From: Convolutriloba macropyga
Taxonomy: Eukaryota
Assembly: GCF_964194025.1 (NCBI RefSeq)
Contig: NC_134482.1
Coordinates: forward strand, 16,492,001-16,556,000
DNA: 64,000 bases
Direction: 5' to 3'
Of this stretch, positions 28,805 through 62,967 are shown piece by piece. The notes below the pieces were generated by a model. The model saw only the letters and a list, made by a program, of their open reading frames with translations, made no database searches and was not told the origin of the DNA. The translations under genes and the position numbers were made by a program. Numbering within the stretch: the first letter of the stretch is position 1; the number at the start of each line of letters is the position of its first letter.

Positions 28805-29306
28805 CCTGTGTTGAGAACTTCGTTGAGTTCAAACATAAGACATTGTCGGTTTTAGTTGGCTTTACTAATCCAAAACCACTCAAAACCCTCAAATTTTTTT
28901 CGTCGTTTTGATCGGTTCTGGTCGGTATTAAAACATAAGAAGCGTTGGTTTTTTCCGTTTTAAAGTCTTACAAAACGGACAGTCTTTGTCTGGATCCGAA
29001 CCTACAAAACAAGATTCATTACCACCTTTTTCTCTATTGCACCACCTCTCGCTTATTTTTCCTTCTTCTTTTGTATTTAAATCAAATTAAAACTGACGAT
29101 ACTGACAAAACACGACTATCATCGACACTTCTTACATAAAATACCAACAAAAAATTGCGCTAATCGACACTTCATAAATTAAATACCGACAATACCAACA
29201 AAATGACCATAATCGACAGTTCCTAAATGCAAAGCCGATGAAATCAACAAACTTCGACAAAAAATGACGCTTCTTGCGCCGATTGCATCGCAGTTTCTCA
29301 GCACGG
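28805..29306. mobile_element. MITE/foldback-like element (duplicated at about 34494-34995)
   Basis: Imperfect TIR cctgtgttgagaac / agtttctcagcacggg; inward-facing gtcgg / ccgac short-repeat arrays. Confidence 0.55.
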
Positions 29307-32300
29307 GTAAAGTAATAAAGTATCTATCAACCTATCTCGGAGAAGCTAATAAGTGTGAGGATTACGTTAAATTGACTACAACTGTAAAAATAGTAAAGAA
29401 ATAAGGTATATCTATCTCAATTGAGTAAATAAAGGTGAAAAATAATTCAAACCCAGAGGAGTTTTAAAATAGGATATATCTCTATCAATTTTGTAAATTT
29501 TCCATAAACCGAGTAGAAATGGCGAAAGATTGTAAAATTTTTGAAATATCTATTACATTAGTATAAGTAAGGGTTTTTTTTGAAAATCGCTAAGATTTAC
29601 ACTTTTTAGAGAGAGTGTAAAAGGAGTGAAATTAAAAGATTACATGCATTGTAGTTTTATCAATACACTCTCCTAACCCTTTCGCAATTATTTAGGTGTG
29701 GACTGGACATCACAACCTAATCCGTGCTAATTAGTTATAAAACTGGTGTCGAAGACAGACCGAGGATCACGAAAAAGAAAATATCGTCAAAACTGACATC
29801 GCGAACTTTGCCAAATGCTTGATGTTTTTTTAGGGTGACCTTTTTATTCAATCTTGGTTATTTTCCTCTGTGGGCAATAAATGTTATCAGAATTAAAGTG
29901 GGCAAAGGCAAAATTATGTAATTATGTATGATGAATGAAAACTATTATGTATAAGAAGTTGAAATAATTAGGAAAAATCCGAGTTTACTCACAGATCATT
30001 AGAGTGAATGGGTTCAAGTCAAGGTCCTAACTCAACGGCTTTAATAGAAAAAATTTGTTAGATGATGCTTGAAAATTGTCAAGTTGTCCACAATAGTTTT
30101 CGATTATCCTACATCAAATATACAATTACAAGCTTAGATAACACAAAAATTTTGCTTTTCAAATTGTTTCCTTGCCTTATGGTTTTCCGTATTCAAGGAT
30201 TGATCATAATTCCAATGTTTCTACTGTAGAAAACCTTCGCAAAGCTTCAATTTTACGTCAATTCATCTAAATTTACAGCTTTCGAAATGTGTTTTTTGCA
30301 AAACCAGGTCCTGCTTTTGATCTGCTTCAAAAAAACTCACATGTGAGGCTAAACTATCTTGTTACCCGCATATTAACGAAATAGTGAAAACCAATCGAAA
30401 TAGACCAGTACTTCGTTTGTGTATTTAAATGTAGATCTTGTTTTTCTGGCGTTTCCAAACCCACATTGTACATAATTCTAGCGTTTAATAGGTGGATCTT
30501 GCAAGTTATTTGCGTTTATAGTCATACATCTTGAACAGTTTAAGTATTTGTAGTTTACTTAAATAGTAGTTTTTGCGAGCAGATTATATTTAAATTTGGC
30601 GTCTTTAGGCGTAGGTAATGGATGATGTTGGGGTTTCCAAGCGTTCATCATACATAGTTCTCATGATTTTAAGCGTTTCTGCAGCACAGCTCTACTGCTG
30701 TAGCGCAGTGAAACTTTTTTCTAATTTGGTGCTATTATGACATCATTAGAACCCACCATTCATGTTTTCTCGCTTTATACTCATATTTTTGATTTAAACT
30801 TCATTTTTAATTTAAACTTCATGAATTGATACATCCCCTAAAAGTTATTAAGGCAAAATCCTAACGCTTTGTCATGGAAAATTACGCCAAGCGCGCTCCA
30901 TTTTAAAAAAAATAACTCAGACAAAATTATGTGATATCAGAAAACCGGCACACAAATTGCTTCAGATTATTCGAATTCTTCAAAATTTAAGGCTCTTGAA
31001 ATGCTTTTTTTGCAAAACCAAGGCGGGGTTTTTATCTATATAAAAAAATAAATTTGACAATTTGACAATAAAATTTCTTGTTATATAGATCTTGTAACCC
31101 GCATACTATCGAAAAAAATAAAAAACGATAGCAATAAATTTGTACTTCTTTTGCGTAATTAACTGTGGATGTAATTTAGCGTTGACGTTTCTAAACTTAG
31201 ATCTTACATAACTTTTAAAAAATTTTTAAAGCCTACGTCTTTCAAAATTTTTGAGTTTCTCACTATGGATCTTAAACAGTTTGAGATTTTGAAGCCTAAG
31301 TCTTACACAAATTGCCATTTATGAGAATATGCTTCCATAAGTTTGGTGTTTGAAGGCGTAGATCTTACGCAATAGAGGCGTTTCTACGCGTTCCTCTAGC
31401 ACTTATTCTGTCTCTGATACACTACCCACTGACCTAGTGGATGACTGTCACCTCTTCTCCCACCGTACCACCCAAACCGACTTTTCCTAAGAATATGTGC
31501 TTCGTAAATTGGAATTCAAAATCTCAAATTCTTACGCGTTGGTGAGTCCGTCAAATCAGTTGATTTGAGTTGGTTTGCGAAAATATAAACTCAATTTCTT
31601 CACCAACGCCTCCATCATGGCACCAACCCAAACCCTCTTACCGCCGATTCCTGCTTTTTCTTGCTTTCTATTTTCTTAAGCATATTTTGAGGTCAAAAAT
31701 TCACCTTCTAATATTGTATCGTAAGTGTATCTTTAAAAATTAAAAAAATTAGAAACGATGCAAAAAAATAACGCTTAGTTATGCAGGATGAACTATAAGA
31801 GACACTGAATCGTAAAAAATATTAAAATATGCCAAATTATGCCAAGAATATGAATAAATTAAGGTAATTCAAAAATTAAACAGTTGGTTATGAAAGATCA
31901 ACTATAAGAAAGACAAAATTAGTTAAGATCGATGCAAAAATAAGCCAAGCGCAATGCACCTTCAAAAATGGGTTTTGTCGGTTAAAGGAAGAGAAAGGTT
32001 TATGATATTTGAATCCCTGCCCAAGAACCGTTTCAGACAATTTTAATTCTTCAAAATTTTAAAGTTTTTAAAATTTTGTTCCAGAATACCAGGACTACCT
32101 GTTGATTAATTTCGAATTTGAGCTATGCAAAGCAAATGACTACTATTAAACAATCAAAACGCTTAGTTGTACAATATTGACGAAGAAACATAATTCAAGA
32201 CCCTACAATCCGCTTTCATATATCGCGAAACTAAAATGTTGACTAAAAATTGAATATTCATATCTAAGTGTCAAGAAAGAAATTGTACGTCCTTCTGTTT

Positions 32301-32325
32301 TCTTTCTTCTTTTGACCTGTCTCGT

Positions 32326-32476
32326 CTATTTGAGTTTTTTGATGAGTCTGAGTCTGATGTATGTGATGAGTAGAGACCCCACCATGATGCAAGTGAGACC
32401 CACTTGATTCTGCCAGTAGTCCCAATCTGTGCCGAACTTGATTCCTGCATCCACAAGATAGTCCTCCCCACTCTTC
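32326..32476 (-). other. Duplicated copy of the ABCG2-like terminal coding exon
   Basis: Identical to 38022-38172, including the TTTTAG acceptor and stop codon. Confidence 0.85.
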
Positions 32477-32500
32477 CTAAAAGAAATTTTCCTAAACGTT

Positions 32501-35500
32501 ATTTCGAATATTCATAAATTATGAAAATAAAACCAATCGCTATACTGTTCTTTACCGATATTTGTAGAAAGTAACTGAGACAGATTTTTGGAAAACTATA
32601 CGTCTGAGAATTAGTTGAGTTATCTGCTTCTCTATTAATTAACAAAACGTGCTATCAATTGTTTCCAGATCTTTTTGAGCTAAATTCGACTTCAAAAAAA
32701 TCTTACTTCATCTATTTAGAATATAACTGAACCAGATTTTGAGTCTGTTTGTGTTAAATAAATTAAGCTAATTCTCTGATTTTCATCTCCAAAAACGTTT
32801 CCCAATTGTGTCGAAATCATGTTGCAATAAAACCAAACCTCAATTGGATGTCTTCATATTTATGTAGCTGAAGAATTATTTTGAATCAGATTTGTTACTG
32901 AGAAAGATAAACAAGTTTCATCCTGACAAACAAGTTTCATCCTTATAAACAAGTTTCATCCTGAAATAAAAGCAACCTCGATTTTGTTGCTTCCCTTTGT
33001 TTATAGAAAGTAACTGAGCCACAATTTTAAACAATTTTTGTCTAGGAATCAAATCAGTTATTTATATCTGTTGGTTTTCAATTAATAATTTTTTTCACGA
33101 ATGATATTCTCTAATTGTGTCAAAGAGTTACTGAAAACAAACCAAACATATAAGAATTTTTTTCTCCCTTGCATGTAGAAAATAATTTATCAAGAACTGC
33201 GAGCCTATTTGCTACACTAAATTTATTTGTTTTTCCCGTTCTTATCTCCAATGAGCGAAATAACTTTTTCGAAAGCTTGTCGGGTCAAGGGGTTGTTCTT
33301 ATGAAACGTTACTTAATATAAATTCGAGACGTAGTTGTTTAGATAAACAGGTAGCTCTTTCTCTCTTTTTGCTTTCCAAACTGTATTTTTCAGTTGGGTT
33401 AAAGACTTTTTGCAATGAAATCAAACGCAATATTGATCTCAGTCTATATAGGTATAACTTAATTGAGAAAAATATTGAGTTTAATTTCTATATAAAATAG
33501 GATAATTTCTACCTTTTATTTCAAATAAAGGAAAAACTTGTTTGAAAAGTGATTTTAGTGAGTTCAAGTGGTTGTTGAAATGAAGTGCATAGAAATGTGA
33601 AGCTTTCCTTATGTATTCAGGTAATTCCTGAAAAAAATAATTCTTCTTTGTTTAAGAGAAAACTTTCCTTCTTCTATTTCTGAATTTTCTAAAAAACAAA
33701 ATTATTTGCAATCAGATAAATGGGTTGCTAAAATGAAATCAATTTCTATATTGTTGCGCTCCGATATATGTTTTCAGTAACAATAATATTTAGAGTCATA
33801 ATTTCACGCAATTGTAAAGCGAAGCAAATTATTAAATATAGTTGTGTAGTTTTAACATCAAATGAAAGTCTGCCCAAGCATGCAACTGAGATAAAAAGGA
33901 GAAATTCCCGTGAAAAATTACTCTAAAAACACTAGCTTGCAAAGGAAAGGGTTTATCAAATTTTAAAGACTGTCAAAATATGGACTGAAAAATTCAGAAT
34001 CTTGGATCAATCCAAATTAATAACCAATTATTTAGATCAAGGATGGGAAAAAATTAACACATGATTAGCCAAAATTGATTTACAAAAATCAATTTTATCC
34101 AAAAAATTGGATAACGATTCTGAAAATATTATAAATTTCACACAGAATAAAATAAAAGACATAAGATTTTGTTATTGGAAGAGAATAATGGGCCGACATT
34201 TACGAAGCACAAATAAAATAAAAACTTTGCCCGAGAGAATGCAAAAGAAAATTCAAAAAATATTTGGTCAAGTTTTTATCTTAAAGATATTTTTGTTATT
34301 ATATTTCCTTAAGAAAACAGCATAAAAATAAGAAATTTTGTGAATCCACTCCAAATTGGAGATGAGTAAAACAAAAAGTATTCCGACAATTTTCAATTCT
34401 CCCAATTTTTCTCTATAAGTATTCTCACATTTCTTACAATTTTTAAAATAAGGATGGCATTTTTATTAATATACTCGACCTGGCATATGATGGCCTGTGT
34501 TGAGAACTTCGTTGAGTTCAAACATAAGACATTGTCGGTTTTAGTTGGCTTTACTAATCCAAAACCACTCAAAACCCTCAAATTTTTTTCGTCGTTTTGA
34601 TCGGTTCTGGTCGGTATTAAAACATAAGAAGCGTTGGTTTTTTCCGTTTTAAAGTCTTACAAAACGGACAGTCTTTGTCTGGATCCGAACCTACAAAACA
34701 AGATTCATTACCACCTTTTTCTCTATTGCACCACCTCTCGCTTATTTTTCCTTCTTCTTTTGTATTTAAATCAAATTAAAACTGACGATACTGACAAAAC
34801 ACGACTATCATCGACACTTCTTACATAAAATACCAACAAAAAATTGCGCTAATCGACACTTCATAAATTAAATACCGACAATACCAACAAAATGACCATA
34901 ATCGACAGTTCCTAAATGCAAAGCCGATGAAATCAACAAACTTCGACAAAAAATGACGCTTCTTGCGCCGATTGCATCGCAGTTTCTCAGCACGGGTAAA
35001 GTAATAAAGTATCTATCAACCTATCTCGGAGAAGCTAATAAGTGTGAGGATTACGTTAAATTGACTACAACTGTAAAAATAGTAAAGAAATAAGGTATAT
35101 CTATCTCAATTGAGTAAATAAAGGTGAAAAATAATTCAAACCCAGAGGAGTTTTAAAATAGGTTATATCTCTATCAATTTTGTAAATTTTCCATAAACCG
35201 AGTAGAAATGGCGAAAGATTGTAAAATTTTTGAAATATCTATTACATTAGTATAAGTAAGGGTTTTTTTTGAAAATCGCTAAGATTTACACTTTTTAGAG
35301 AGAGTGTAAAAGGAGTGAAATTAAAAGATTACATGCATTGTAGTTTTATCAATACACTCTCCTAACCCTTTCGCAATTATTTAGGTGTGGACTGGACATC
35401 ACAACCTAATCCGTGCTAATTAGTTATAAAACTGGTGTCGAAGACAGACCGAGGATCACGAAAAAGAAAATATCGTCAAAACTGACATCGCGAACTTTGC

Positions 35501-38202
35501 CAAATGCTTGATGTTTTTTTAGGGTGACCTTTTTATTCAATCTTGGTTATTTTCCTCTGTGGGCAATAAATGTTATCAGAATTAAAGTGGGCAAAGGCAA
35601 AATTATGTAATTATGTATGATGAATGAAAACTATTATGTATAAGAAGTTGAAATAATTAGGAAAAATCCGAGTTTACTCACAGATCATTAGAGTGAATGG
35701 GTTCAAGTCAAGGTCCTAACTCAACGGCTTTAATAGAAAAAATTTGTTAGATGATGCTTGAAAATTGTCAAGTTGTCCACAATAGTTTTCGATTATCCTA
35801 CATCAAATATACAATTACAAGCTTAGATAACACAAAAATTTTGCTTTTCAAATTGTTTCCTTGCCTTATGGTTTTCCGTATTCAAGGATTGATCATAATT
35901 CCAATGTTTCTACTGTAGAAAACCTTCGCAAAGCTTCAATTTTACGTCAATTCATCTAAATTTACAGCTTTCGAAATGTGTTTTTTGCAAAACCAGGTCC
36001 TGCTTTTGATCTGCTTCAAAAAAACTCACATGTGAGGCTAAACTATCTTGTTACCCGCATATTAACGAAATAGTGAAAACCAATCGAAATAGACCAGTAC
36101 TTCGTTTGTGTATTTAAATGTAGATCTTGTTTTTCTGGCGTTTCCAAACCCACATTGTACATAATTCTAGCGTTTAATAGGTGGATCTTGCAAGTTATTT
36201 GCGTTTATAGTCATACATCTTGAACAGTTTAAGTATTTGTAGTTTACTTAAATAGTAGTTTTTGCGAGCAGATTATATTTAAATTTGGCGTCTTTAGGCG
36301 TAGGTCATGGATGATGTTGGGGTTTCCAAGCGTTCATCATACATAGTTCTCATGATTTTAAGCGTTTCTGCAGCACAGCTCTACTGCTGTAGCGCAGTGA
36401 AACTTTTTTCTAATTTGGTGCTATTATGACATCATTAGAACCCACCATTCATGTTTTCTCGCTTTATACTCATATTTTTGATTTAAACTTCATTTTTAAT
36501 TTAAACTTCATGAATTGATACATCCCCTAAAAGTTATTAAGGCAAAATCCTAACGCTTTGTCATGGAAAATTACGCCAAGCGCGCTCCATTTTAAAAAAA
36601 ATAACTCAGACAAAATTATGTGATATCAGAAAACCGGCACACAAATAAATTGCTTCAGATTATTCGAATTCTTCAAAATTTAAGGCTCTTGAAATGCTTT
36701 TTTTGCAAAACCAAGGCGGGGTTTTTATCTATATAAAAAAATAAATTTGACAATTTGACAATAAAATTTCTTGTTATATAGATCTTGTAACCCGCATACT
36801 ATCGAAAAAAATAAAAAACGATAGCAATAAATTTGTACTTCTTTTGCGTAATTAACTGTGGATGTAATTTAGCGTTGACGTTTCTAAACTTAGATCTTAC
36901 ATAACTTTTAAAAAATTTTTAAAGCCTACGTCTTTCAAAATTTTTGAGTTTCTCACTATGGATCTTAAACAGTTTGAGATTTTGAAGCCTAAGTCTTACA
37001 CAAATTGCCATTTATGAGAATATGCTTCCATAAGTTTGGTGTTTGAAGGCGTAGATCTTACGCAATAGAGGCGTTTCTACGCGTTCCTCTAGCACTTATT
37101 CTGTCTCTGATACACTACCCAGCACTGACCTAGTGGATGACTGTCACCTCTTCTCCCACCGTACCACCCAAACCGACTTTTCCTAAGAATATGTGCTTCG
37201 TAAATTGGAATTCAAAATCTCAAATTCTTACGCGTTGGTGAGTCCGTCAAATCAGTTGATTTGAGTTGGTTTGCGAAAATATAAACTCAATTTCTTCACC
37301 AACGCCTCCATCATGGCACCAACCCAAACCCTCTTACCGCCGATTCCTGCTTTTTCTTGCTTTCTATTTTCTTAAGCATATTTTGAGGTCAAAAATTCAC
37401 CTTCTAATATTGTATCGTAAGTGTATCTTTAAAAATTAAAAAAATTAGAAACGATGCAAAAAAATAACGCTTAGTTATGCAGGATGAACTATAAGAGACA
37501 CTGAATCGTAAAAAATATTAAAATATGCCAAATTATGCCAAGAATATGAATAAATTAAGGTAATTCAAAAATTAAACAGTTGGTTATGAAAGATCAACTA
37601 TAAGAAAGACAAAATTAGTTAAGATCGATGCAAAAATAAGCCAAGCGCAATGCACCTTCAAAAACGGGTTATGTCGGTTAAAGGAAGAGAAAGGTTTATG
37701 ATATTTGAATCCCTGCCCAAGAACCGTTTCAGACAATTTTAATTCTTCAAAATTTTAAAGTTTTTAAAATTTTGTTCCAGAATACCAGGACTACCTGTTG
37801 ATTAATTTCGAATTTGAGCTATGCAAAGCAAATGACTACTATTAAACAATCAAAACGCTTAGTTGTACAATATTGACGAAGAAACATAATTCAAGACCCT
37901 ACAATCCGCTTTCATATATCTCGAAACTAAAATGTTGACTAAAAATTGAATATTCATATCTAAGTGTCAAGAAAGAAATTGTACGTCCTTCTGTTTTCTT
38001 TCTTCTTTTGACCTGTCTCGTCTATTTGAGTTTTTTGATGAGTCTGAGTCTGATGTATGTGATGAGTAGAGACCCCACCATGATGCAAGTGAGACCCACT
38101 TGATTCTGCCAGTAGTCCCAATCTGTGCCGAACTTGATTCCTGCATCCACAAGATAGTCCTCCCCACTCTTCCTAAAAGAAATTTTCCTAAACGTTATTT
38201 CG
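32501..38202. repeat. Tandem segmental duplication, copy 2
   Basis: Differs from copy 1 by about 6 substitutions and +4/+3-nt indels (counted by eye). Confidence 0.97.
38022..38172 (-). CDS. ABCG2: ABCG2-like half transporter, terminal exon (join 51784-51660, 47071-46917, 46510-46421, 43889-43822, 38172-38022)
   Basis: KSGEDYLVDAGIKFGTDWDYWQNQVGLTCIMVGSLLITYIRLRLIKKLK* parallels the ABCG2 end GEEYL..QGI...W.NHVAL.CM...AYLKL..LKK. Acceptor TTTTAG|G (phase 2). Confidence 0.85.
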
Positions 38203-39586: not shown

Positions 39587-40646
39587 CCCAGGTTGAGGTC
39601 CCAGACCGAAAGTGGATATGTCCAGACCGAAATGAACGCACAAGGTGGCGTCGTGCGTTCAAAATTACACGGTCTGGAAACGAAAATGAACGCACGATAG
39701 TCTGGACATATGCAATTTTGAACGCACGATGGTCTGGACATAAGCAATTTTGAACGCACGAAAGTCTGGACATTGTGACTCGGAGCGCACAAAATTTTTT
39801 TTCGAATGGAAACAAGAATGCCAAAAACTAATGAGTCCATGTTTGACTAAACACTCTTAATAGAGTGCTCACTCAAGTGAAAGCTTTCTACCAAGAAAAC
39901 CTCAACTCACTTGAGTTCAAAAGTTACAAAACATCGAACGCAGGAAAATTCGCATCCAACATTTTGCTTTGTTTAAAACAATTTCCTACCTAGAATTATA
40001 AACCCTTGCTGAAGTTGCAAAGCAAATCATACTTTAATAACTAGGTCGCTGGCAGCCCCTTCAGCCAATGCTTTCATCGAACATCTTTTATTAAACAAAA
40101 TGTAGGAACTGTTTGGGCACTTCATCACAACCATCACCCTAACGTATCTATATTTGAAACGAATACATTATAAAAACGTTATCTGAACATGAACGCACGA
40201 AAGTCTGGACATACGCATTTTTGAACGCACGAAAGTCTGGACATAGGTGTTTTTGAACGCACGATAGTCTGGACATGAACGCACAAATGAGCGCACGATT
40301 TTTCATTTAGAACGCACTAAAGTCTGGTCATATAAGATTTTGAACGCGCGAAAGTCTGAACATAAGCACGTTTGAACGCACGAAAGTCTGGACATAGGTG
40401 TTTTTGAACGCACAAATCAGCGCACGAATTTTAATTTGGAACGCACTAAAGTCTGGTCATATAAGATTTTGAACGCACGAAAGTCTGGACATAGGGAGTT
40501 TTGAACGCACGATGAACGCACAAAAAATTTTGAACGCACGAAAGTCTGGACATAGGCACTTTCCGTCTGGGAGGGTCTGGACATAGACACTTTCCGTCTG
40601 GGACGGTCTGGACATATCGACTTTCAGTCTGGCACCTCAACCTGGG
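39587..40646. mobile_element. Non-autonomous DNA transposon with ~43-bp TIRs and internal ~33-bp repeats
   Basis: Left TA|cccaggttgaggtcccagaccgaaagtggatatgtccagaccg; right cggtctggacatatcgactttcagtctggcacctcaacctggg|TA. Many tgaacgcacgaaagtctggacata units. Confidence 0.85.
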
Positions 40647-45419: not shown

Positions 45420-46275
45420 ATCACACGAGTACCACAACTGGATGCAGTCTATGTAAAAGTACTTGTCGCTTAGGTGTATTCCAGACACGCTATGTTTCTA
45501 CAGCTGAGGTGAATTCCATAAACGTGTACCTTCAATTGAGCTGCAGCCAGTTATGTATACCTGCGGTTCAAGTGAAGTACAGGTAAGCGTACCTGGGGCT
45601 GAGGTGCATTCCACCCGGGGCTGAGGTGTAGTACACCTGGGGTTGAGTTGTAGTGTACCTGAGGTTGAGGTATAGTCCCTTTAGGAGTAACCGTGGCTGA
45701 GGTGAAGTACAAGTACGCGTACAAAGGGCTGAAGTGCAGTCTACCTGGGCTCAAATACACTCCTAGTACGAGTACCTGTGGTTGAGGTGCAGTCCATAAA
45801 CGAGTACACTTTAGGCTGAGGTGTAGTCAATGTATAAGCACCTGCGGCTGAATCTGAGTCCAGGTACGCCTGCCAAGGGCTGAATCCATCTGGAACTGAA
45901 GCGCAGTCCAATTATGAAAACATGCGGCTTAGCTGATGTCGATGTGCAAAAACTTGCGGCTGACATGCAGTCGGCGAAGTAGGCAAACCTACGGCCAACG
46001 AGCAGTCCATTTACGAGTACCTGTGGCTGAGCTGCACCCAATGTATGAGTACCTGCGGTTGAGGTGCGTTCCATCTATGAGTACTTGAGGCTGAGGTGCA
46101 GTTTCTTTACGAGTAATTGTGACTGAAGTACAGTTTATGTGTAGTCCATGTGCTTAGGTGAGTACCTGTGACTGAGCTTTGTTCAAACAAAGCTGACCGC
46201 AGACTGAAGTGCAATCCAGAGGATCTTACCTGCAGCTGAAGGACCGTCGGATGAACAAAGCCTTCAGCTGAGGAG
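45420..46275. repeat. Degenerate ~32-bp minisatellite
   Basis: Consensus gagtacctgtggctgaggtgcagtccatntat; regular units visible at 46015-46130. Confidence 0.85.
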
Positions 46276-48312: not shown

Positions 48313-51300
48313 TCAAATTTGGATAGAATAACAACAATTGAAAATTGGAGTTCCCCAAATTTTGGTATATGAATTGTAGAAGCCTCAATAATAAACATGA
48401 GCAATTGTCTCGTTTTTTGAAAAATCTTAATGAAACCTCATTACTAGTTGTTACCGAAACATGGATAAACGAAATAACTGACATTCCCGAGTTTTATCTG
48501 TGCAATAGCCATCACTTCATTCACCAACCAAGATCATCTTTAACTAATGTACAGAGAGGTGGAGGGGTAGGTATTTGGGTTCCCAAACAGTTTGAAGCAA
48601 AAATGAGAAATGATTTGAACACAATCAATAGAAGTTTTTTTGAGTCAAGGTGGATTGAAATTGGTAAGCCTTTAACACAAAAACTACTCATTAATGTAGC
48701 ATACTGCCCCAATGTAAATCTTTCTAACTTTTTTCTGGATGAAATGACTGTAGAAATCTCAAATGTATATTCGTATACAGATAATCTCATTTTATTAGGA
48801 GATTACAATATAAACTTGTTAGGCACAAAAGGTAGACAGTCACTTGATATTTTCACAGCAAACAATGGGCTATGTTACGTTAATGAAACGGAGGCAACAT
48901 GGACAAATGGTGAAAAATATTCGTTAATTGATCACTGCTTTATCTCGAAGAACCAAATTTTTGAAGCCAGTGTTCTAGAGTCGACTCTTGGAGTTGATCA
49001 CTTCACAATAGTATATCAGTCATCATTAAAAATAGATCACAGTGATAAGAAAAGACAGTTTTTGATACGTTATACCAAGAAATATTCAAGATCAAATTTT
49101 AATCGTGACATTGCGCTGCAAGATTGGTCGCCTATGCACCAGATAAATGAGCCGAACGAAATGTTTTTAAAAGTTATTGAAGTTTTTGAAAGTATACTGA
49201 GTTGTCATGAACCCTTGAAGTTGGTAGACAGTAGTACCAAAAAACAACAAAAGCAATGGTTGACAAAAGAATTACGTGGTCTCATAAATGAAAAACACCG
49301 TCTCTTTAATGCGTGGAAGAAAAACCCAAAATCAGAGATTTATAACATTTACAAATCTTTACGCAATTCGGTGAGTAGAAAACTGAAAAAAGCTGCAGAT
49401 GATTACACAAAGACTTTTTTCCAGCAGCTACCAACTTCAGGAGAACAATGTAAATTCATCAAAAACAGGATCAATTCCAACAGCCAAATAGAAAAAATTG
49501 ACAATTTAAAGGAAAATAGTCATTTTGTTGAGGATGACAGAGAGACTATCAATGTTCTTAATAATTGTTTTGCGAGACTAGGATTATACAAAGGCAAAGA
49601 CGTTGCTCCAAATTGTTCTTCCCTAACATTTGATGGACCGGAATTTAGCTTCCGACCAGTCACCAGAAAAGAATTGTATAATGTTATTGATAATCTACCT
49701 AAGCATAAATCTCCCGGACCGGGCTATGTACCAGCATGGGCGCTAAAAGATAGTAAACTGTCTATTGGAACTCATTTACAATTTGTCGTCAAGGAATGTA
49801 TAAACAAAAACACGTTTCCTTATATTTTGAAAACAGCGCATGTTACACCTGTCTATAAGAAGTGAGATCGACTAGAGCCAGAAAACTATCGACCCATATC
49901 AGTCACACCAACTCTAGCAAAAATTTTTGAGCGAATACTACTTGAACAACTAACTCACCATCTAACTCTTAATGGTCTGATTAACAAGAATCAATTCGGC
50001 TTTCAAAAGCAAAAGTCCTGTCTCGATACTATCATTTCATTAACTGAAAAGATAAACCAATGCGTTGACGAAAGGAAACTGTTGTCACACTCTTTTTAGA
50101 CTTAGCAAAGGCTTTCAACTCAATATCTATAGATGTTTTTATGAACAAAATGAAAAGGTATGGAATTGGAGAAATTGCAAGAATCTTATTAAACTCTTTC
50201 CTTTGTGACAGAAAACAGTTTGTAAAAAATCGGATAGCAAAATCAGATTGGGTTGTCATAAATCACGGTGTTCCTCAGGGAACTGCCTTAGGGCCTCTAA
50301 TTTTTATACTTTATGTCAACGATTTCAGTGAAGCTGTATCAACGAATTGTGATGTATTACAGTTTGCCGATGATACAGCAATTCTATGTCATGCACAGAA
50401 TGAAGCAATTTTACAGTTAATAGCTGAAGATACATTCAACAAGACAGATCAATATATGAAACAAAACAGGTTAACTTTGAATGAGAAAAAAACGGAGTTA
50501 ATGGTGTTCAGGAATGAAAAATTGCCGATCATTGAAACTGTCGATTTCAAGGGACACCGATTGGAAACATCTGAAAAATGTAGATATTTAGGTGTAATAA
50601 TTGATAGGGAACTGACATACCAAAATCAACTAAATAAGGTTATCAGTAAAATGGCTTCAGCAATCAGATCATTATATTTGGTTCGTTATCAGGTACCGCT
50701 AAAAACAAGAATAAATCTTTTTAAATCACTAGTTTTGTCTCATTTAGATTTTAGCGCAATTTTTTTTCAAAATTTACCATCTTACTCTATTGACAGAATT
50801 AACAAACACATAAACTGGGGGAAAAAAGTTTGCTTTATGAAAACCAAATACGATACTGCCAGAGATCTACTTCTGGAGACTAAAATTCTTCCAGCAGAGC
50901 TCCAAATAACACGGGTGTCTTTAAATAGATTTTTCAATATTCTCCAACAAACAAGAAATCGCTCTAATAAACATTTCAGATTTTTAGAAAACGTGTCTAT
51001 TATTGTAAACAAACGAACCCATAACCTTTTCTTAGAACAAAAATGTAAGTCAAAATGGAGTAATGGTTCAATTGTTCGTAACTTTATTCGAAAATGGAAC
51101 ACACTTCCAATTACAATTAGAAAAGAAACGTCGAAGACCAAATTTAAACAAAAAGTTACAGCGGAAATGCTTAAACGACACGAAAGAGTTCCAATAGACA
51201 GAAGTGGTGCAGGATTTAAACATATTTTTTATTAGATTATTTTACGAAAACCGAACCTTAGTTTGTTATAAATTAGAAAAAAATAATGTTTGATTAATAA

Positions 51301-52434: not shown

Positions 52435-53730
52435 TGTATTACCAACCAGAATATACGCAACTACTTGGCAAGCCAAAATATTGTTGATTCAAGAGGGTGA
52501 TAAAACCCACTTTGCATTGAAATTGAAGCCACAGATCCAGAATTTGAACTTTTGTTCCGTTGGTTTGTTTATCAATCCGAGCAGTGATATGATAGCATCT
52601 GGAACCTTACTATGGGGACCAGAAAACTGTCGTAGAGTTTTCGTCGACGGATCTCTTTTTTCAAGCTACGGCTCACATTAAGCTCTTCTTGCTTAAATCA
52701 AGATCGTGACCGGATTTATGGGTAAACTTCTGTAATAATCACATTCGTTTATAAAAAATATCATTCGAAAAACGGAAAAATTGTTCCTAAATAAAACATT
52801 GTTATATGTTATTTTGACTTAAATCAGGGAATCACTGCTAGAGAGCGTTAATGGACACAATCATTTCGCTTCACTAGACAAAAGTCATCCTCAGACTCTA
52901 TCAAATTTGGCTGGGCTGCTACAGATCACACAATACGAGATCTCTTTATGTATGCCAGTCAAACTTGACAAAAGATATAACAAATCGAAGGCAAAGATAT
53001 ATCCCTAAGACCTGTCTGTGCTATAAGTCTCAATTTAAAACTGTTGGGGGGCTGAAAAGTTCAATTAATTAAATAGATAGTTTAAATAAACAAGCTTACA
53101 CTGAGTAGTATTTAACCGGGTTGAGCTGTTACTTGATTGTGTTGTTGTTAAGTGAGTGCGTCGTTGAAACTTCTTCAAGTCGGGTTCTGTTTGAAAGTTA
53201 GAAAATGTTCTTCTAAGTAAGAAGTCTTTTATATAATTTCTTCTCTGTTTGAATTTTGAAATTTAGTTTGTAGGAAAAATGAAGCAGTTGTCTGCTGCTG
53301 GTCGTTGGCTCTGTTATTTGTCTCTTTAATTTTATTCCGTCCCACTTCGCTGAGAGAAACAATTAATTCCTCTCAGCTCCGTTTGGGCCGTTAGGGAGCG
53401 AATCACAAACTCACGTTCATAGTGCAGCTGTCATATTGCAACTGTCAAAAGCAGAAGTAATTTAAATCAAAAGAAACTGTGGTTTTACAGGCCGCCTACG
53501 TTCAACAACGTACATTTTCTGTCCTGGATATAAGCGTGGAGATCCAGGCCTAAAGTTGTGTCATTTAAATAAGTCGAACTGAGTTGTTTAAATACTTGTG
53601 TACTGGTAGTCTTAATAAGCGTTAGTTTGTTTAGCGCGCGGCGAAAGAATGGTTAATTAGCGCCTAAATACGTTCGCTCTAATGCGGGATTAATTATCCG
53701 TTCATTTGTAACGGCTCTCGTAATAATACA
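52435..53730 (-). repeat. Putative 3' LTR (~1.3 kb)
   Basis: On minus strand, starts TGTATTA right after purine-rich AAAATCGGGGTGAGC and ends TAATACA (7-bp terminal inverted repeat), followed by ATAT(C). TATATAAAAG at about 53226-53235. The 5' LTR is not in the window, so the distal end is inferred. Confidence 0.6.
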
Positions 53731-53847
53731 GCTCACCCCGATTTTAAGATAGAAAAGAAAATGACTAAAAGAAAAAAATATACGGCATCGTATATGATTT
53801 TATTGCGCTTGGGACATATGAATGAGTTACTACAAGTTCAGACAGTT

Positions 53848-53921: not shown

Positions 53922-55096
53922 TTAGTTAAAAAATTCTGGAGGCAAAATGACTGGGCTTGGCATCGGACTGTTACCATCGTCTTCGATCAAAAGAACCTCT
54001 TGTATATCGTCCTCAGTTGGTTCGTCCTTATCCATTGACTGTCGCTTTTTGTGCTTTTTAACCCTCCTTTTGAGCTCGGAAATTTTGGTTTTTTGTTCAT
54101 CGTTTTCCTTCATTAATTGTGTTATTTTCTTTCCTAGCTCCAGATTCTTTTCTCCAAGTTTTTTGTTGGCGTTTGTTATTTCTAGATGTTTCAAGGAGAA
54201 CGTTTTAGCAAAGTTTGCGCGTTTGATTTGCTGGTTTTTTGGAGTTGATGGGCAACGACATATTGGCGCCGCCAATAGTCGTTAGGTAGTTGCTTCTCCT
54301 CAGGTGGTTTCTGTGATTCCATTTTAAGTTGTTCAAATTTCAGTTGCAATTCTTGCAACTCTGTTTCCTTTTGAAATTGTTCCTGCCTGAATGTGGTGTT
54401 TTCCTCTATTAAACTATTGGTGTTGATATTTGATAGTTCTGGCATCTCGACAGGAAAAGCGGAAATGGCATCGTAGGGGACTTCAATATATGCGTCGAGC
54501 ATGTTATTCCTAAGGGTATAAATGCCCTTCTTAGGGTCGCGATTTTTGATTCTCCATTTGTTGTTTTCTGCGGGAAGCGAGAAGGTTTTCAGAACTGGAA
54601 GCTTTTCGCTGTTGACTAGTATCTGTTGATGTCTATTTGACTGGATGATGTTTATTTTATTAGCAACCTCAAATTTGTTGTAGTTTGGTTTCAGGAAATA
54701 GAGGAGGGTGTTAACGTATCTCGGGTTTTCTTTATTCATGTTCTTCTCTCGCGGTTTCTGCAATTTCAAACATTCTGAGGGTATTTTCCTGATAGCGTCG
54801 GGAACGAGATCTTCAATGTTGTTCATCTTAATAATTTTGTTTTTGTGATTGCTAATTTGTTGGGTTGGGAATTGTCTCTTTCTGCTAACTTGCCAGTTGT
54901 TTTCGGGATCATATTGACTGGAAGTTGATGGAGATGCAACAGTTGTAGTAACTTGTTGTGTGTTCTGAGGTTTAAATGGAGGCTTTGTGAAAATAGGAGG
55001 CTGAGAAGAATGGGTTTGTGTTTGTTCTTGTTGTGTTGTCACTTGTTGATGTTGACTGGGGATTACTACGCTTGCGAGTGTGGGTCTGGTAGTCAT
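53922..55096 (-). pseudogene. Accessory protein (~390 aa if one frameshift near 54200 is repaired): Q/T/P-rich N-terminus, coiled coil, basic NLS-like patch, acidic tail
   Basis: Overlapping ORFs 54191-55096 and 53922-54275; LELGKKITQLMKENDEQKTKISELKRRVKKHKKR; EDDIQEVLLIEDD. Confidence 0.55.
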
Positions 55097-55381
55097 TCTG
55101 AGTGTTTCCTTGTGGATGATCTAAAATGTTTTGATTTTGGTTAGCCTGTGTCATCAATATCACACATTATGGCTTCTTTTCAAGTTTGCAATTGTATTGC
55201 TAACATAAAAAAGTATTCTATTGTAAAAAATGTTTTCGTAAGGTTTTGTTGCTAACTGCTTTACTTAAAAATTATAATGCTAAATGCATTTGTTATTAAA
55301 AATTGGTAGAAAAGTTTTTGTTTTGCTAAATGCAAAGTTAACTTTTATAAAGGGAGGGGGGCAATAATAATAAAATTTTTA

Positions 55382-55500
55382 TACTTATGCCAGGCGGGCA
55401 GCCCTGGCACAAGTACGTCTTACTCCGCTGCCCGGAGGTGTGAGTCTTGGGGCGTGCGTCACACTAACACGGCTGCAACGACCCGTGCAGCTGGGGAGAC
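55382..55500 (-). other. GC-rich structured RNA element with complementary hairpin loops (kissing loop or pseudoknot)
   Basis: 13-bp stem UACUUGUGCCAGG/CCUGGCAUAAGUA (G-U pair only on minus strand) with loop GCUGCCCG. Neighbouring CUCC-GGGCAGC-GGAG hairpin has a complementary loop. Two further 6-bp stems. Confidence 0.6.
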
Positions 55501-55785
55501 AACCTTGCTGAATTGAAAGAAAGAAATTTTCCGGGTCATTCTTGGAATTTTCAGTTATCGTGTTAGTGTTCTGAATTATTTAGGTTCAAAAGCCAGGGGG
55601 GCAGGCTGGAGAAAGCTGAGGTAACCCCTTCCCGAGGAAAAGTTAAGAGAGAGAGAGAGAGAGAGAAAAAGATCGTTTGTACTTGAGTTGTTTTTGATTT
55701 ATTAGACAACGTCGTCTAAAAAAATTTTTTGCAAATGGGACATCTTGTCAGCTTATTTATGCACACCCGACAGAATCGGTGTTTG

Positions 55786-56097
55786 TCATGTTGGGAAAAA
55801 TGTGGGTGTTTTGTTACTCCTAATTCTGTTTTCATTTTTTTTGCATAAATTGCAATGAAAGTAGGATGTGATCAGGACGCGAAGACAAGCTCGAAGACAA
55901 ATGGGACATTTAGGGTTTGGGTATCTTTTAAAAAGTGCCTTTCTGCAAGGAATACATACATAGTGAGGATTTTCTCTGGGAAATTGCTTATGTAGTTTTT
56001 CTACAGTAACGGTTTTTCGTGAACATATGGGGCAGATAATGTCCGTATGGGGGTAGAACCAACGGAAACCGTCGAATAGGGATTGTGAAAGACCCAT
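55786..56097 (-). CDS. Accessory RING-like zinc-finger protein C (103 aa, MGxxxS myristoylation motif)
   Basis: CPIC-KLH-PHYVCIPC-PKCPIC-FHCNLC; paralogous to 56556 and 57157 ORFs. Confidence 0.75.
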   Translation of the reverse strand: MGLSQSLFDGFRWFYPHTDIICPICSRKTVTVEKLHKQFPRENPHYVCIPCRKALFKRYPNPKCPICLRACLRVLITSYFHCNLCKKNENRIRSNKTPTFFPT

Positions 56098-56121
56098 CGA
56101 GTGACTGTTCTCTTATTTTCC

Positions 56122-56244
56122 TTAGATAGAAACAGGAAAACCTTTGAGAAACTGCAGTAGGATGAGATTAATGAGGAACGATATGGCAAGCAAGGTAATT
56201 AGGATTAGGATAAATATTTTTGTGGATAGGCCTAGATTGGTCAT
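56122..56244 (-). CDS. 40-aa single-TM micropeptide
   Basis: MTNLGLSTKIFILILITLLAISFLINLILLQFLKGFPVSI*; AAAATG start 2 nt after the previous stop. Confidence 0.55.
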   Translation of the reverse strand: MTNLGLSTKIFILILITLLAISFLINLILLQFLKGFPVSI

Positions 56245-56246
56245 TT

Positions 56247-56363
56247 TCACTGTCTGGAGAAAATTTGGCGAATTGTGGAAAGGAGGTAGTGATTAATAAA
56301 AAGGGATATTGCCAATGCGCATAAGAGAACAAATAGAAGAATAAACAATGTTATGGGTTGCAT
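56247..56363 (-). CDS. 38-aa single-TM micropeptide
   Basis: MQPITLFILLFVLLCALAISLFINHYLLSTIRQIFSRQ*; shares LAIS.+IN..LL with 56122-56244; AAAATG start 4 nt after the previous stop. Confidence 0.55.
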   Translation of the reverse strand: MQPITLFILLFVLLCALAISLFINHYLLSTIRQIFSRQ

Positions 56364-56367
56364 TTTG

Positions 56368-56505
56368 TCAATTCAATGAGTAGTGTAGAACTAGGGTGAA
56401 GGAGGTGACTTGCTTCTGGTAAAAACTGAGTTGAATTAGGGATATCGATTGGATTAAAAATAAAACTAGGGAAAGAAGTAAAATTTTGGATGTTCTTGGA
56501 CGCAT
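56368..56505 (-). CDS. 45-aa hydrophobic micropeptide
   Basis: MRPRTSKILLLSLVLFLIQSISLIQLSFYQKQVTSFTLVLHYSLN*; AAAATG context. Confidence 0.45.
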   Translation of the reverse strand: MRPRTSKILLLSLVLFLIQSISLIQLSFYQKQVTSFTLVLHYSLN

Positions 56506-56555
56506 TTTAGGTTATGTGATTGTTTTTTTGCAACGAGGGCATAATTTATAATCTT

Positions 56556-56888
56556 CTACGCAAAATTTACAAAAGTTGACGGGCTCATGATCACTGTGAT
56601 GAAACGTTTTTGCAACAGAATATTGAAATCTTGTTTCTTGCAAATATCACATTGAAACCAGTTAAAGATTGAAAAGATAACTCTAAATTTAGAGCATTTA
56701 GGACAAAAATCATAGCCCATATCTTTTATAACATATTGGTAACAGAGCAGACACATTACGTGGGGTAGTTCGTTAGGGGCGTTCTCGTGTAATTTCTTGA
56801 AAACAATTGTTTCACGTCTGCAGCATAAACCAATTAATGAGACCGGTTTGGATTCTATAGTATTGGTTTCTTTGTCAATTGTATTCAT
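56556..56888 (-). CDS. Accessory RING-like zinc-finger protein B (110 aa)
   Basis: GLCC-KKLH-PHVMCLLC-CPKC-FQCDIC, same spacing as paralogs. Confidence 0.72.
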   Translation of the reverse strand: MNTIDKETNTIESKPVSLIGLCCRRETIVFKKLHENAPNELPHVMCLLCYQYVIKDMGYDFCPKCSKFRVIFSIFNWFQCDICKKQDFNILLQKRFITVIMSPSTFVNFA

Positions 56889-56914
56889 TTTTGAAAGATT
56901 GTTATTGGAAGAAA

Positions 56915-57163
56915 TTATGGGACTGGCACGGTTGGAGGATTTGGTTGTCGATTATTTTGGGATTTTATTGTTTGGTCTATTACTAATATAATTATGAACA
57001 TCAAAAAGTTGAAAGGAATACTTACAACTACGAGGAAAACGGTTAAAACGAAGGAGAAGGCTGCTGCAATAATCATAAGGGCCATTAATAAAAAATCAAG
57101 TAATCTGGGGGTACACATTTTGGATAGTTTGTGAACGTAGTTTTGAATTGAGGATTTTACCAC
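56915..57163 (-). CDS. Small membrane protein (82 aa, long hydrophobic segment)
   Basis: LLDFLLMALMIIAAAFSFVLTVFLVVVSIPFNFLMFIIILVI; start overlaps the previous stop (ATGGTAA). Confidence 0.6.
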   Translation of the reverse strand: MVKSSIQNYVHKLSKMCTPRLLDFLLMALMIIAAAFSFVLTVFLVVVSIPFNFLMFIIILVIDQTIKSQNNRQPNPPTVPVP

Positions 57164-57555
57164 GGGTTGTTTGGGTCAATTGTTTGTTTGCATAAAGGGC
57201 ATTTAGTAGTTGTGAAAATCATACACTGCAAACAAACTGATTTTTTTGGGTGTAGGCTTTTGAAGTGGCTGTGGCAAGTGCATAACTTTTTGATTTCTTG
57301 ACAAGAATCACACTGGAAATAATGGCAATGACTGATTGTATAAATGGGAGTTACGCAAATGGGGCATTTAGGTTGGTTCCAATATTTAAATAATTCATTT
57401 CTACAAGGAATGCAAGCAAAAGGGGGGGTTTGACCGTTTGGGTTTTTGTGCAATTTTTTAAATTGACGACAAGGGAGGTAACAAATAGGACATTCGATTT
57501 TTGGGGTTGAGTCAATTTGTGGTTGCTGAGATAATATTTCCAAAATGTTTCCCAT
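57157..57555 (-). CDS. Accessory RING-like zinc-finger protein A (132 aa, extra C-terminal Cys cluster)
   Basis: CPIC-KKLH-CIPC-PKCPIC-FQCDSC, then CTCH..H..CLQC..CPLC. Start overlaps the previous stop (TAATG). Confidence 0.75.
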   Translation of the reverse strand: MGNILEILSQQPQIDSTPKIECPICYLPCRQFKKLHKNPNGQTPPFACIPCRNELFKYWNQPKCPICVTPIYTISHCHYFQCDSCQEIKKLCTCHSHFKSLHPKKSVCLQCMIFTTTKCPLCKQTIDPNNPW

Positions 57556-59902: not shown

Positions 59903-62337
59903 TTAAGGAGGTGTCACCACACTTCGAATTATTGCATCATTTTGTGGTTGTGGTTGATGTGACGCCAGACTTGGGTATTCTGCTTTATTATTTTCTGTAT
60001 GACAATGCTCATCAATTTTATTTTCTCTTGGTTGATCCTCAACGCATTTGTAAGTTTTTTCTATTGTGCTGTAAGGTTGATAATTACTAAGCGGTAAAAA
60101 GTGATTGTTGTTCTGTGGGGCCGACGGTTTGGTTTCGTTAGAGAATACCGGTGTAAAGAACGATAAGATACAAAGATTATATGTTGCTCCTAATAGAATT
60201 TTCCAAAAACCCATTGTTTTGTTGGATATTTTGTGGATTTCGAACGCTCTTATGATTGTTACGATTACATCAGTTAAGAATTTTATGCAAAAGAAACAAG
60301 CAAAATAAACTCCAATTTTTTCCAGATAAAAAGTGATGATTCCAAAAGTGCCTTTGAACTGGTCTGTAAAAAATGTAGGTGAAAGAAGAGAATCTAGATA
60401 AATTTGTCTGTTAATTCCCATTACTGACGCATAGATATCTTTTTGAGAATTTGTCTATGCTTCTTCCTTCTAGAACTTCTCTTGAAATTTTTGTCAAAAC
60501 AGATTTTGAAGCTTCCGAATGCAAGATATTGTCCCAAAACGATTTAAGCTGATTTGGTGTGTAAATTCCGGCACGTTGCGATTCGTAACCGGTAAATTTT
60601 GGAATAGAACTAATAACTCTTGAAGAGAATATGTTTGGCGGTTGTAAAGGAACAGGTGCTGGCATCAAATGGTACTATGAGTTTTCATTATCAATATCTA
60701 ATTGGTAGGCATTTTTATAGCCTCCAACACAATCTACTTCGTTTGCAGATGGGCAGGTTTGTCGAGTAATTGGGTCGACGAACATTGTCCTACCATCATA
60801 ATGAATAGGAATTCTATCATAACACTGCTCAAGAACCTGAAGTGGTGAGTTTGGGTTTGGACAGTGGTACAGCCAACCTATGCTACCATCTGTGTCTAAG
60901 AACATCGAGCGGTTGCCGGTTAACATATATCCAGCTAAACGATTGTTTTGGATAGCCTGCATTAGTATCATTTGTTTTTGAGTTCGGTCAAGTTCGCATT
61001 GTTCTATGACCAAACCTTTCCATGCTTGTTTTTTTTGTTTGCATGTAACTATGATATATGACAAAATCCATTTTTACCGCAAGATTAAGATCATAGTCTA
61101 ACTTCTCTTTGTCTAAGTGTTCCCATGCAACAAAACCTTTGTCGAATGTTCGGATCTGTTCATCTGAAGGCTTCCTATTAAACCCATTTACACTTAGGCT
61201 ATTGTCAGGTTCAACACGAAGTTTATGAAAAAATTGTTGAGTTTTTTGTTTTATAAGGTTTGCCAGTCTTCATATTAAATCCGCCTTTATAAGAAACATA
61301 TAAAGAATCTAAATTTGTTCTGTAAATAAATTCTGGTTTTCCACACACCTTTTCTTTTTCATCAATTACTCTAATTTTTATGTCCATTTCAGCAGGAGAA
61401 TACGCTCCTGGTCCTTCATAGGGCGTCTCCGGTTTTTCATTACTCACTATGAAATACTGTACGTTACCAAGTTCGTTTTCATGTTTTAGCATTTTGGCGT
61501 TTTGTGAAAATCTTTTAGTAACTATACAATTTTCCGGTGCTTCCCAATTGTATGCAAAGGGGTCGAGTGATGTCGAATGACAACCTCCTTCTGAGAGGGC
61601 ACAAGGAAGTTTTAGTCCTTGACTGTTATAGACAGTTCTGTCATTAAGATCAATATCGAGTACAGTTTCTTGCATCAGGGTTTCAAAAGAGAAAAAGAGA
61701 AGTGTTTAATTTGACCACGATTATCACAAGATGTTGATGAATCACCTTCAAGATCAACTCCCTGGTTTTTATAGGAGACAGTTTTTTTTCCATGTTTTAT
61801 GTCAATTTCCATGTCATCATCGTCAAATTCGGTAACAGTAATTTTTCCAGTTTTATTAGCATTTAGGCATTTTTCGGGTGAAACAATAATATCGTATGTT
61901 ATTATTGGAGCGTTGTGTACAATTGATGAATGGGAAAACATACCACAATTATAACGAATGAGCATTGCAGTGACTTTGCACATAAGAGCTTTAACAAAGT
62001 TCCGATAAGACCGTTGATAAAGTGTTACATGTGTATCAACCATCTGAATGTTTTCGGGTGAATTTTTGCAAGGAGAAACTTGTGTTAAAGCATACATTTT
62101 ATTTTCTTTCATTTTAGAACAGTCATAATGAATGACCCTAAGTTTGTTAGATACGTCATTAATATCCTCAAAAGGAGGTCCAGTGGCGTTAATAACTATA
62201 GGAAGAGTACAAAAGTAGAAAAGACTTATAAGTAAATAAGAAAAATAGAGTTTTTCAAAACAAGGATATCTGTTCATCCTGTTCTTTTTTAGCGCTTCAA
62301 GTCGGGAATTAAGGCTATGAGTTGTAGTAATAGGCAC
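59903..62337 (-). pseudogene. env: Envelope glycoprotein, chuvirus-like / class III fusion type, split by frameshifts and one stop
   Basis: Signal-like YFSYLLISLFYFCTLPIVINA. Motifs HYDC, CKV..YNCGMFSH, LDYDLNLAVKMDFV, AGY..LYHC..CYDRIPIHY..FVDPITRQ..EVDC and GIYT..QL. C-terminal TM segments. Confidence 0.75.
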
Positions 62338-62380
62338 TGCCAGTAAATGTTGACTGGATTTATTGCTACCTAAAACAAAG

Positions 62381-62967
62381 TTAAGTAACTCCGGCTTGAT
62401 AGCGTGATGGCGGCTCGGCCGAGCGACTAGAAGTTCGCCTATTATTATTATTATTTTCTAAAGTTTGTAAATTATAAGATCCTTGTTCCGATGTATTAGG
62501 GCGGAGAGGACTTAAATTAGGGTCTAGAGGTATTCTAGAATTATGCTGTGGGCAAGGAGTTGAACTTCTTGTTCGACTACCGCCAGGCAACTGTGTTTGG
62601 ACTGGAGGTGGGTTAACACGACCACCTGAACTTGCTTCGTTGAATCCAGAATCGAAATTGGTAGGAGTTCGGTCAGGGTCGAAGTTCTGCACAGGGGAGT
62701 CTCTTCGTATGAAATTCTCCACGGGGAAATTTTCGGTGTTAGTGGGGCTTTGGAAGGAGAATTTAGTCAAGGGACTGTTGAGTTTATTCATCTGACTTGT
62801 CATTAGATTATTATAAAATGTGTCACAATTATTTTTATCTATACCATATTCTAGGGTTAACTCTGGTATAGTTTCAGTAGCTGGGTAGTACTCGACTAGG
62901 TGATTTCTATGAGCGACCTTCCTGGTGGCCGGGTTGCTATCTAAAGTTAATTCATAGTTAACATTGG
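62381..62967 (-). pseudogene. Frameshifted integrase C-terminal extension (S/T/P/N-rich)
   Basis: After GPY, TNVNYEL...VAHRNHLVEYYP continues in a shifted frame, followed by the low-complexity ORF 62381-62803. Confidence 0.55.

Follow-up and report, generated by a model that had tools for sequence, protein, structure and literature searches.

Within a Ty3/gypsy LTR element that carries env, a short GC-rich stretch, read on the minus (sense) strand, is a real, conserved non-coding cis element, and it probably acts as a structured RNA. By exclusion of other roles and by analogy with the MusD transport element (MTE), it may govern the nuclear export or the splice balance of the whole element RNA, a reading that we prefer tentatively and rate at somewhat short of an even chance. 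In the predicted fold, hairpin A is followed by an H-type pseudoknot and by hairpin D, which is 13 bp long and whose loop would pair with the strand just upstream.

The host retroelement and its copies

The window, that is, the whole 64,000-nt stretch of DNA analyzed here, comes from the 1.18-Gb genome of Convolutriloba macropyga. An LTR pair, an integrase after gag-pol, and an env ORF place the host element among the env-carrying Ty3/gypsy elements; Pfam detects pieces of the integrase and of the PF24664 fusion protein upstream of the structured stretch. The env gene itself (59903..62457, minus strand) matches the PF24664 fusion glycoprotein at E-values of 7.8e-11 and 6.6e-16 and is split here into several broken frames. 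After env come, in 5′-to-3′ order, small ORFs, three RING-like accessory ORFs (55786..57555, minus strand), the structured element, and a last accessory ORF (54191..55096, minus strand). The 836-nt 3′ LTR (52899..53734, minus strand) is 99.2% identical to the 5′ LTR, which lies outside the window; ~270 nt present in other fetched copies are absent from both LTRs of the window copy (53424–53435). The RING-like ORFs, which form the end of the small-ORF cassette, are similar to one another by mutual tblastn and match RING/zinc-finger Pfam entries below threshold. Between 57555 and 59814, the cassette that follows env holds ~6–8 ORFs of 70–110 aa each and is found in four families; several of these ORFs are coupled via overlapping stop–start words, and no confident Pfam match was obtained for them.

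The last ORF reads as 301 aa here and continues in another frame; unbroken copies encode 371–414 aa, and its alleles, down to ~43% identical, have been exchanged at constant positions close to 55110 and 54874. The 301-aa piece has no match in Pfam. The last ORF has 42 homologues, every one from a single source collection, and its Atlas matches stay below 0.9. Its structure model (pLDDT 60) returned no fold match at an E-value of 0.001 or better; a predicted beta domain (approximately residues 130–210) weakly resembles Tudor/PWWP/SH3 barrels (best E 0.07) and is followed C-terminally by a long coiled coil and then a basic stretch. Elsewhere in the window lie a near-identical tandem duplication of ~5.7 kb (26812–37422), arrays of a 32-nt repeat (39654–40636 and 45445–46132), and, on the plus strand (48342–51235), two long ORFs that, judged from their translation, resemble parts of a non-LTR element, namely its endonuclease and its reverse transcriptase.

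The core of stem D has 170 exact matches genome-wide, as compared to none for a control, and the middle segment of the structured element has 159; the element core was counted at at least 170 genomic places. An env search and 40 downstream regions yielded five groups, families B to F, besides family A, within which a subfamily A2 is distinguished.

Fold, conservation, and covariation

All the helices proposed in a sequence-only reading of this DNA were located at their positions on the minus strand, within a GC-rich island that does stand out as that reading described (a peak of 65% GC over 100 nt vs. ~35–39% around it). Hairpin D (55382..55415, minus strand) has a 13-bp stem (55415–55403/55394–55382) with one G·U pair (55410/55387) and an 8-nt loop (55402–55395). 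The complete stem forms on the sense strand only, as had been claimed, the plus-strand maximum being 8 bp, and the 56-nt piece comprising C and D gives a folding z-score of −3.54 on the minus strand versus −2.07 on the plus strand. Segment C, the CUCC/GGAG stem (55423..55437, minus strand), carries at 55434–55427 the complement of loop D; this proposed complementarity, too, was recovered, spanning 8 nt with a duplex energy of −15.9 kcal/mol. Among 2000 dinucleotide shuffles, a stem of at least 13 bp arose 6 times, a 7-bp loop–loop complementarity 31 times, and both together never, while loop complementarity by itself occurs in 156 of 6390 tiles of the window (2.4%). The stability of the whole 146-nt region is not unusual (z −1.96). 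Stem D alone is thermodynamically dominant when pseudoknots are left out, and it is the only part with a high pair probability in each copy tested (0.97 in five of five).

Hairpin A (55472..55491, minus strand), with 6 bp and an 8-nt loop at 55485–55478, has 97.8% of its cells paired. The H-type pseudoknot is predicted at 55438..55470 (minus strand), with S1 at 55470–55467/55459–55456 and S2 at 55464–55460/55442–55438, the latter being the GUGUGA/UCACAC stem named in the sequence-only reading. The CUCC/GGAG stem is the least-kept helix (92.8% paired) and has a competitor: its GGAGA (55426–55422) may pair instead with UCUCC (55495..55499, minus strand), a pairing that would substitute for hairpin C in closing the 5′ domain. 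The two pairings are similar in energy, and 55495–55499 varies less than the 5′ strand of hairpin C (p 0.004; 0.04 excluding CpG changes). In addition, an 8-nt strand complementary to loop A lies 39 nt upstream (55532..55539, minus strand) and could make 8 pairs in 82 of the 117 copies labeled A; a U/C polymorphism at 55538 preserves this pairing as G·U or G–C, and the complement is absent in subfamily A2 and in a deletion subfamily. These refinements (the pseudoknot, the GGAGA partner, the loop-A complement, and the linker geometry considered below) are all post hoc. The window copy carries a private base at 55422, in the C–D linker.

The element varies ~3-fold less than its flanks, and up to 10-fold less in a biased sample. 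Across 17 copies ranked on a 400–401-nt query, the minor-allele fraction is 0.8% in the element versus 1.9–2.3% in the flanks, and sites with a variant in at least two copies number 0 of 119 in the element versus 16 of 217 in the pair of flank segments next to it. Across 69 distinct copies, a sample biased towards the element in that it was partly found through the element itself, variation is 0.7% versus 3.7–7.9% in four flank segments. The element is kept at ~80–92% identity in copies whose flanks are barely alignable, and nine A2 copies and a few old copies retain it next to genes that have diverged. Two contig runs of unrecorded type hold allelic variation only, with at least 3 sites inside the element and at least 37 outside it over 901 nt. 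The notion that the stretch has no function, being merely GC-rich and similar among copies through recent copying and ascertainment, is largely refuted, and we consider it extremely unlikely. Many copies were indeed found via patterns in the element itself, and loop complementarity alone is as frequent as the tile count indicates, but the less biased sample still varies less within the element, and family B has hairpin A in the corresponding place.

The structure alignment comprises 97 rows, a misaligned deletion copy (L288) being dropped from some tests. Pair 55407/55390 is C–G in 81 of the 97, U–A in 9 (subfamily A2, one event), and U·G in 3. Pair 55469/55457 occupies three states, U·G in 51 rows, U–A in 44, and C–G in 2, and is unpaired in none of the 97; stem S1 was proposed only after this variation had been seen. 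Since the three-state pair defines a 4-bp stem whose loop pairs with 55442–55438, GUGUGA/UCACAC is likely the second helix of a pseudoknot, making that stem probably one half of an H-type fold. Five single events common to at least nine copies (55471, an insertion near 55466, 55457, 55453, and 55445/44) all fall at unpaired positions of the model put forward in the sequence-only reading (chance ~0.01), and the sole remaining event in at least nine copies is the compensatory pair. Pairs changed on both sides, of which there are 3, do not exceed what shuffling yields (at least as many in 103 of 500 shuffles), and pair-breaking variants recur in 3–5 copies at 55489, 55436, 55428, 55415, and 55384. 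The kissing pairs are kept at 96.9%, with a change on both sides in none of the 97 aligned copies. The covariation expected among copies was found in part, as one compensatory pair in the 13-bp stem (55407/55390) and two wobble-preserving polymorphisms, with the kissing loop invariant and free of covariation. Together with conservation, that pair and those polymorphisms support the claim of a cis-acting structured RNA on the sense strand. For the kissing loop, invariance agrees with the proposed contact, and covariation does not demonstrate it.

The same polymorphisms bear on a reading at the DNA level, in which inverted factor-binding sites and a TATA box would serve as an internal promoter or enhancer driving the downstream accessory ORF. 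This rival stays alive because of a TATA-like word, TATAWAWR, located immediately past stem D in 79 of 116 copies; in A2, moreover, the RING AUG would come after a short leader, the complementary loops are readable as one motif inverted, and template switching may give rise to a symmetric palindrome change. Yet the common polymorphisms are wobble-type and agree with the sense strand, and the G·U of stem D is kept in 94 of 97 rows. The TATA word is missing in 37 copies, a second TATA-like word is matched in only 1 of 116, and in family A a transcript initiated there meets 2–4 upstream AUGs. We regard the promoter as unlikely.

The loop–loop contact is plausible, and simple helix arithmetic suggests how it would have to be made. 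With both stems complete, the stacked kissing complex spans 60–67 Å end to end, as compared to a reach of 47–56 Å for the 7-nt linker, so that two complete stems would not be able to kiss within one molecule; either stem C or the base of stem D opens, or the contact is intermolecular. In the latter case, segment C in each of two genomes would pair with loop D in its partner, which would align the two packaged RNAs at their 3′ ends and favor template switches that shuffle the accessory ORFs. Such cross-kissing would keep the stems complete, would entail the observed loop invariance, expected wherever partners must remain compatible, and would suit the heavy swapping of the flanking modules. There is also a precedent in Ty1, proposed to dimerize via two 7-nt loops that are complementary and non-identical (PMC5454406). 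But the known dimer signals lie at the 5′ end, and the family A leader has its own 8-nt palindrome. Fraying of the stem D base or opening of stem C would allow the contact inside a single molecule, and family B lacks the C/D pair. On balance, cross-kissing, the main rival, appears unlikely. The leader palindrome, ~210 nt past the LTR (L031:8216-8224, minus strand; also L377 and L378), is itself a candidate for a classical dimer-initiation site.

Splice-like signals and possible functions

Directly before the element lies a pyrimidine tract with tandem YAG (55508..55526, minus strand), a putative 3′ splice acceptor, and farther upstream a branch-point-like CTAAC (55562..55566, minus strand) that may be used in splicing. 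CTAAC is present in 95 of 116 family-A copies, a YTRAY word being absent in 12; at least one YAG is kept in 115 of the 116 and two in 55, a retention that amounts to few independent events because the copies are related. A second acceptor-like site (55121..55144, minus strand) stands 14–30 nt before the last-ORF AUG and downstream of all upstream AUGs, and its TTTAG is kept in 97 of 104 copies across ORF alleles. As the last ORF has this acceptor-like site of its own, the structured element would be left out of its mRNA. In a search for spliced retro-copies, the junctions inspected, in 4 of 20 fetched copies (L337, L340, L343, and L344), are microhomology or filler joins and not splice joints. 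Coding constraint was also considered and rejected: one sense frame reads through the whole element in family A, yet it lacks an AUG and meets a stop in A2, and two antisense frames, open for ~45 codons in A and A2, lack a start. Before the last ORF, at 55160–55171, 55280–55290, and 55320–55330, lie short motifs that recur between families and are possible DNA-binding sites: CATAATGTGTGA, common to A and B, and two GCATTTAGC, common to A and C.

The element is not tied to one ORF. In subfamily A2 the next gene is a RING ORF, with its first AUG 63–97 nt away; in family A it is the last ORF, in several swapped alleles, 267–288 nt downstream behind 2–4 AUGs; and in family B the next ORF is ~279 nt away behind 2–3 AUGs. 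This arrangement bears on the suggestion that the structure is an IRES, or a shunt, that occupies the 5′ portion of an mRNA, either spliced or polycistronic, and serves the next ORF. Multi-pseudoknot folds are typical of IRESs, and A2 lacks any AUG on the way from the upstream acceptor-like site to its RING ORF. Loop A has a GGG, as does HCV domain IIId. For a type IV, HCV-like IRES, neither a Watson–Crick match of the loop A GGG at the apex of host 18S helix 26/ES7 nor a fixed short start-codon distance was found, the spacing to the next long ORF ranging over 63–288 nt with 2–4 upstream AUGs in A and B; the host helix-26 loop complements loop A over no more than a 6-mer rich in wobbles, and even the best matches to 18S are what chance would give. 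Several cassette ORFs, moreover, are coupled by overlapping stop–starts without any such structure. The specific proposal of an IRES for the ORF at 55096 fares poorly because of the distance and the intervening AUGs, that ORF's own acceptor-like site, the varying downstream gene, and the missing 18S match, and an IRES or shunt for whichever ORF follows is decidedly unlikely.

A self-cleaving ribozyme or an exonuclease-blocking fold, both raised in the sequence-only reading, would have to belong to a class yet undescribed, and we judge this very unlikely. Loops and junctions are near-invariant and several pseudoknots are predicted, as might suit such a fold, and a GAAA is followed by a strand able to pair with 55500–55497, reminiscent of hammerhead stem III. 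Hammerhead ribozymes have CUGANGA and GAAA cores around three stems; here the CUGANGA core is absent, and the GAAA is missing from the window copy. Cleavage inside genomic RNA would, in addition, cut ahead of the 3′ LTR. Rfam searches with the window, an A copy, and a B copy returned no family at a meaningful score, whether of ribozymes, IRESs, CTE/RRE-type elements, or xrRNAs, the best matches lying far below gathering cut-offs (E 0.19–3.8); the element belongs to no Rfam family.

An element that is retained whatever gene comes next, has its structure on the sense strand, and sits ahead of the 3′ LTR most likely acts on the whole RNA. Lying immediately after a splice-acceptor-like site, it would recruit export or splicing factors of the host, or else a protein encoded by the retroelement, and the bound factors would help intron-containing RNA out of the nucleus. 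A more elaborate scheme, which we consider quite unlikely, is a splice-sensing RNA switch, in which pairing of loop A with the upstream strand would loop out the acceptor in unspliced RNA, C and D would cross-kiss between two genomes, and splicing would flip the fold by taking away the partner of loop A. If true, the switch would mark full-length RNA for export or dimerization from its 3′ end, and the element would be a fixed crossover point for accessory-gene swapping. The export or splice-balance reading bears on how unspliced RNA of env-carrying Ty3/gypsy elements leaves the nucleus and how their long accessory cassettes are expressed. The candidate is short and bounded, has natural variants, and is naturally missing from some families, so that it is testable on a ~170-nt fragment.

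Related families and known systems

Family B, whose last ORF is ~30% identical and whose gag is 70% identical, retains hairpin A at the same position with its loop unchanged, a closing A–U replaced by G–C, and a 4-bp stem. Hairpin A is the sole part in common: the remainder of the element differs, the C/D pair is absent, and the fold predicted for family B itself shows no significant covariation. Complements of loop A occur upstream in 31 of 40 family B copies and downstream in 38 of 40, with 7 upstream pairs in 28 of 39; a U/C site in the upstream complement also fits a branch-point word and is therefore not independent evidence of pairing. Two further ideas were set aside. For a long-range contact between loop A and the 5′ leader, complements exist in two of two further A leaders and in none of four B leaders in which gag was located, and a tRNA-like reading of the family B element found no gene by ARAGORN in eight of eight loci. 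A profile search found no counterpart in families C, D, and E, which share a last-ORF homologue (gag 76%, 65%, and 53% identical, respectively), or in family F, and the element is thus not essential clade-wide.

Pattern searches for further families returned a MITE family, chance matches, or counts below control. The MITE-like DNA repeats (L219–L248, e.g., L235:1501-2084) start with a 13-mer one base off the 5′ half of hairpin A and end in an imperfect inverted copy of it (107 pattern matches vs. 15 in the control), a likeness that may be coincidence because the search pattern was built from hairpin A. A generic scan for loop pairing in the 40 env-downstream regions found only an LTR-end motif in family F, where, in 26 of 28 copies, the nearly invariant LTR end includes a small hairpin with a loop complementary to a strand 33 nt upstream (L127:3550-3640 and relatives). 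IMG/VR gave 15 matches, of which the 6 inspected all resemble chance GC-rich matches, and a metagenome search gave none.

Among open-access papers, the literature search yielded no 3′ RNA element acting in cis for env-carrying Ty3/gypsy elements of invertebrates. The nearest relatives by layout are errantiviruses with a gB-type env, which share the LTR-gag-pol-env order and a match to the class III-type fusion protein family (PMC13524379); the present element differs in that its env is followed by a small-ORF cassette, by RING-like ORFs, and by a last ORF. The words "UTR," "RNA structure," and "splic" are absent from the main text of that survey. In the Ty3/gypsy class, Cer1 of Caenorhabditis elegans needs a dedicated route for export of its unspliced RNA, according to the available passages of PMC10309623; its CERV, unlike the element here, is a protein, and those passages name no cis RNA target.

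By fold, the closer comparisons lie elsewhere. The Ty1 SL1a and SL3a hairpins have two different tips, complementary over 7 nt and nearly invariant, which are proposed to pair between molecules (PMC5454406). Segment C and loop D are likewise non-identical, complementary, and invariant, but the Ty1 motifs lie in the 5′ packaging domain and far apart, whereas the loops here are ~25 nt apart and ~1.65–1.7 kb before the 3′ LTR. The MTE of the murine LTR retrotransposon MusD combines a kissing contact with a pseudoknot, both needed for export (PMC5767303). The element described here would likewise be a structured cis RNA of an LTR retroelement with a loop–loop contact of ~8 nt and a pseudoknot, the pseudoknot being predicted with a three-state pair and the loop contact being predicted without covariation. 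It belongs to another retroelement lineage and another host, spans ~120–160 nt, and is likened to the MTE by fold and not by sequence. On these analogies, the MusD MTE would be the closest working model for the element, with Ty1 two-loop kissing as the model for the main rival reading.
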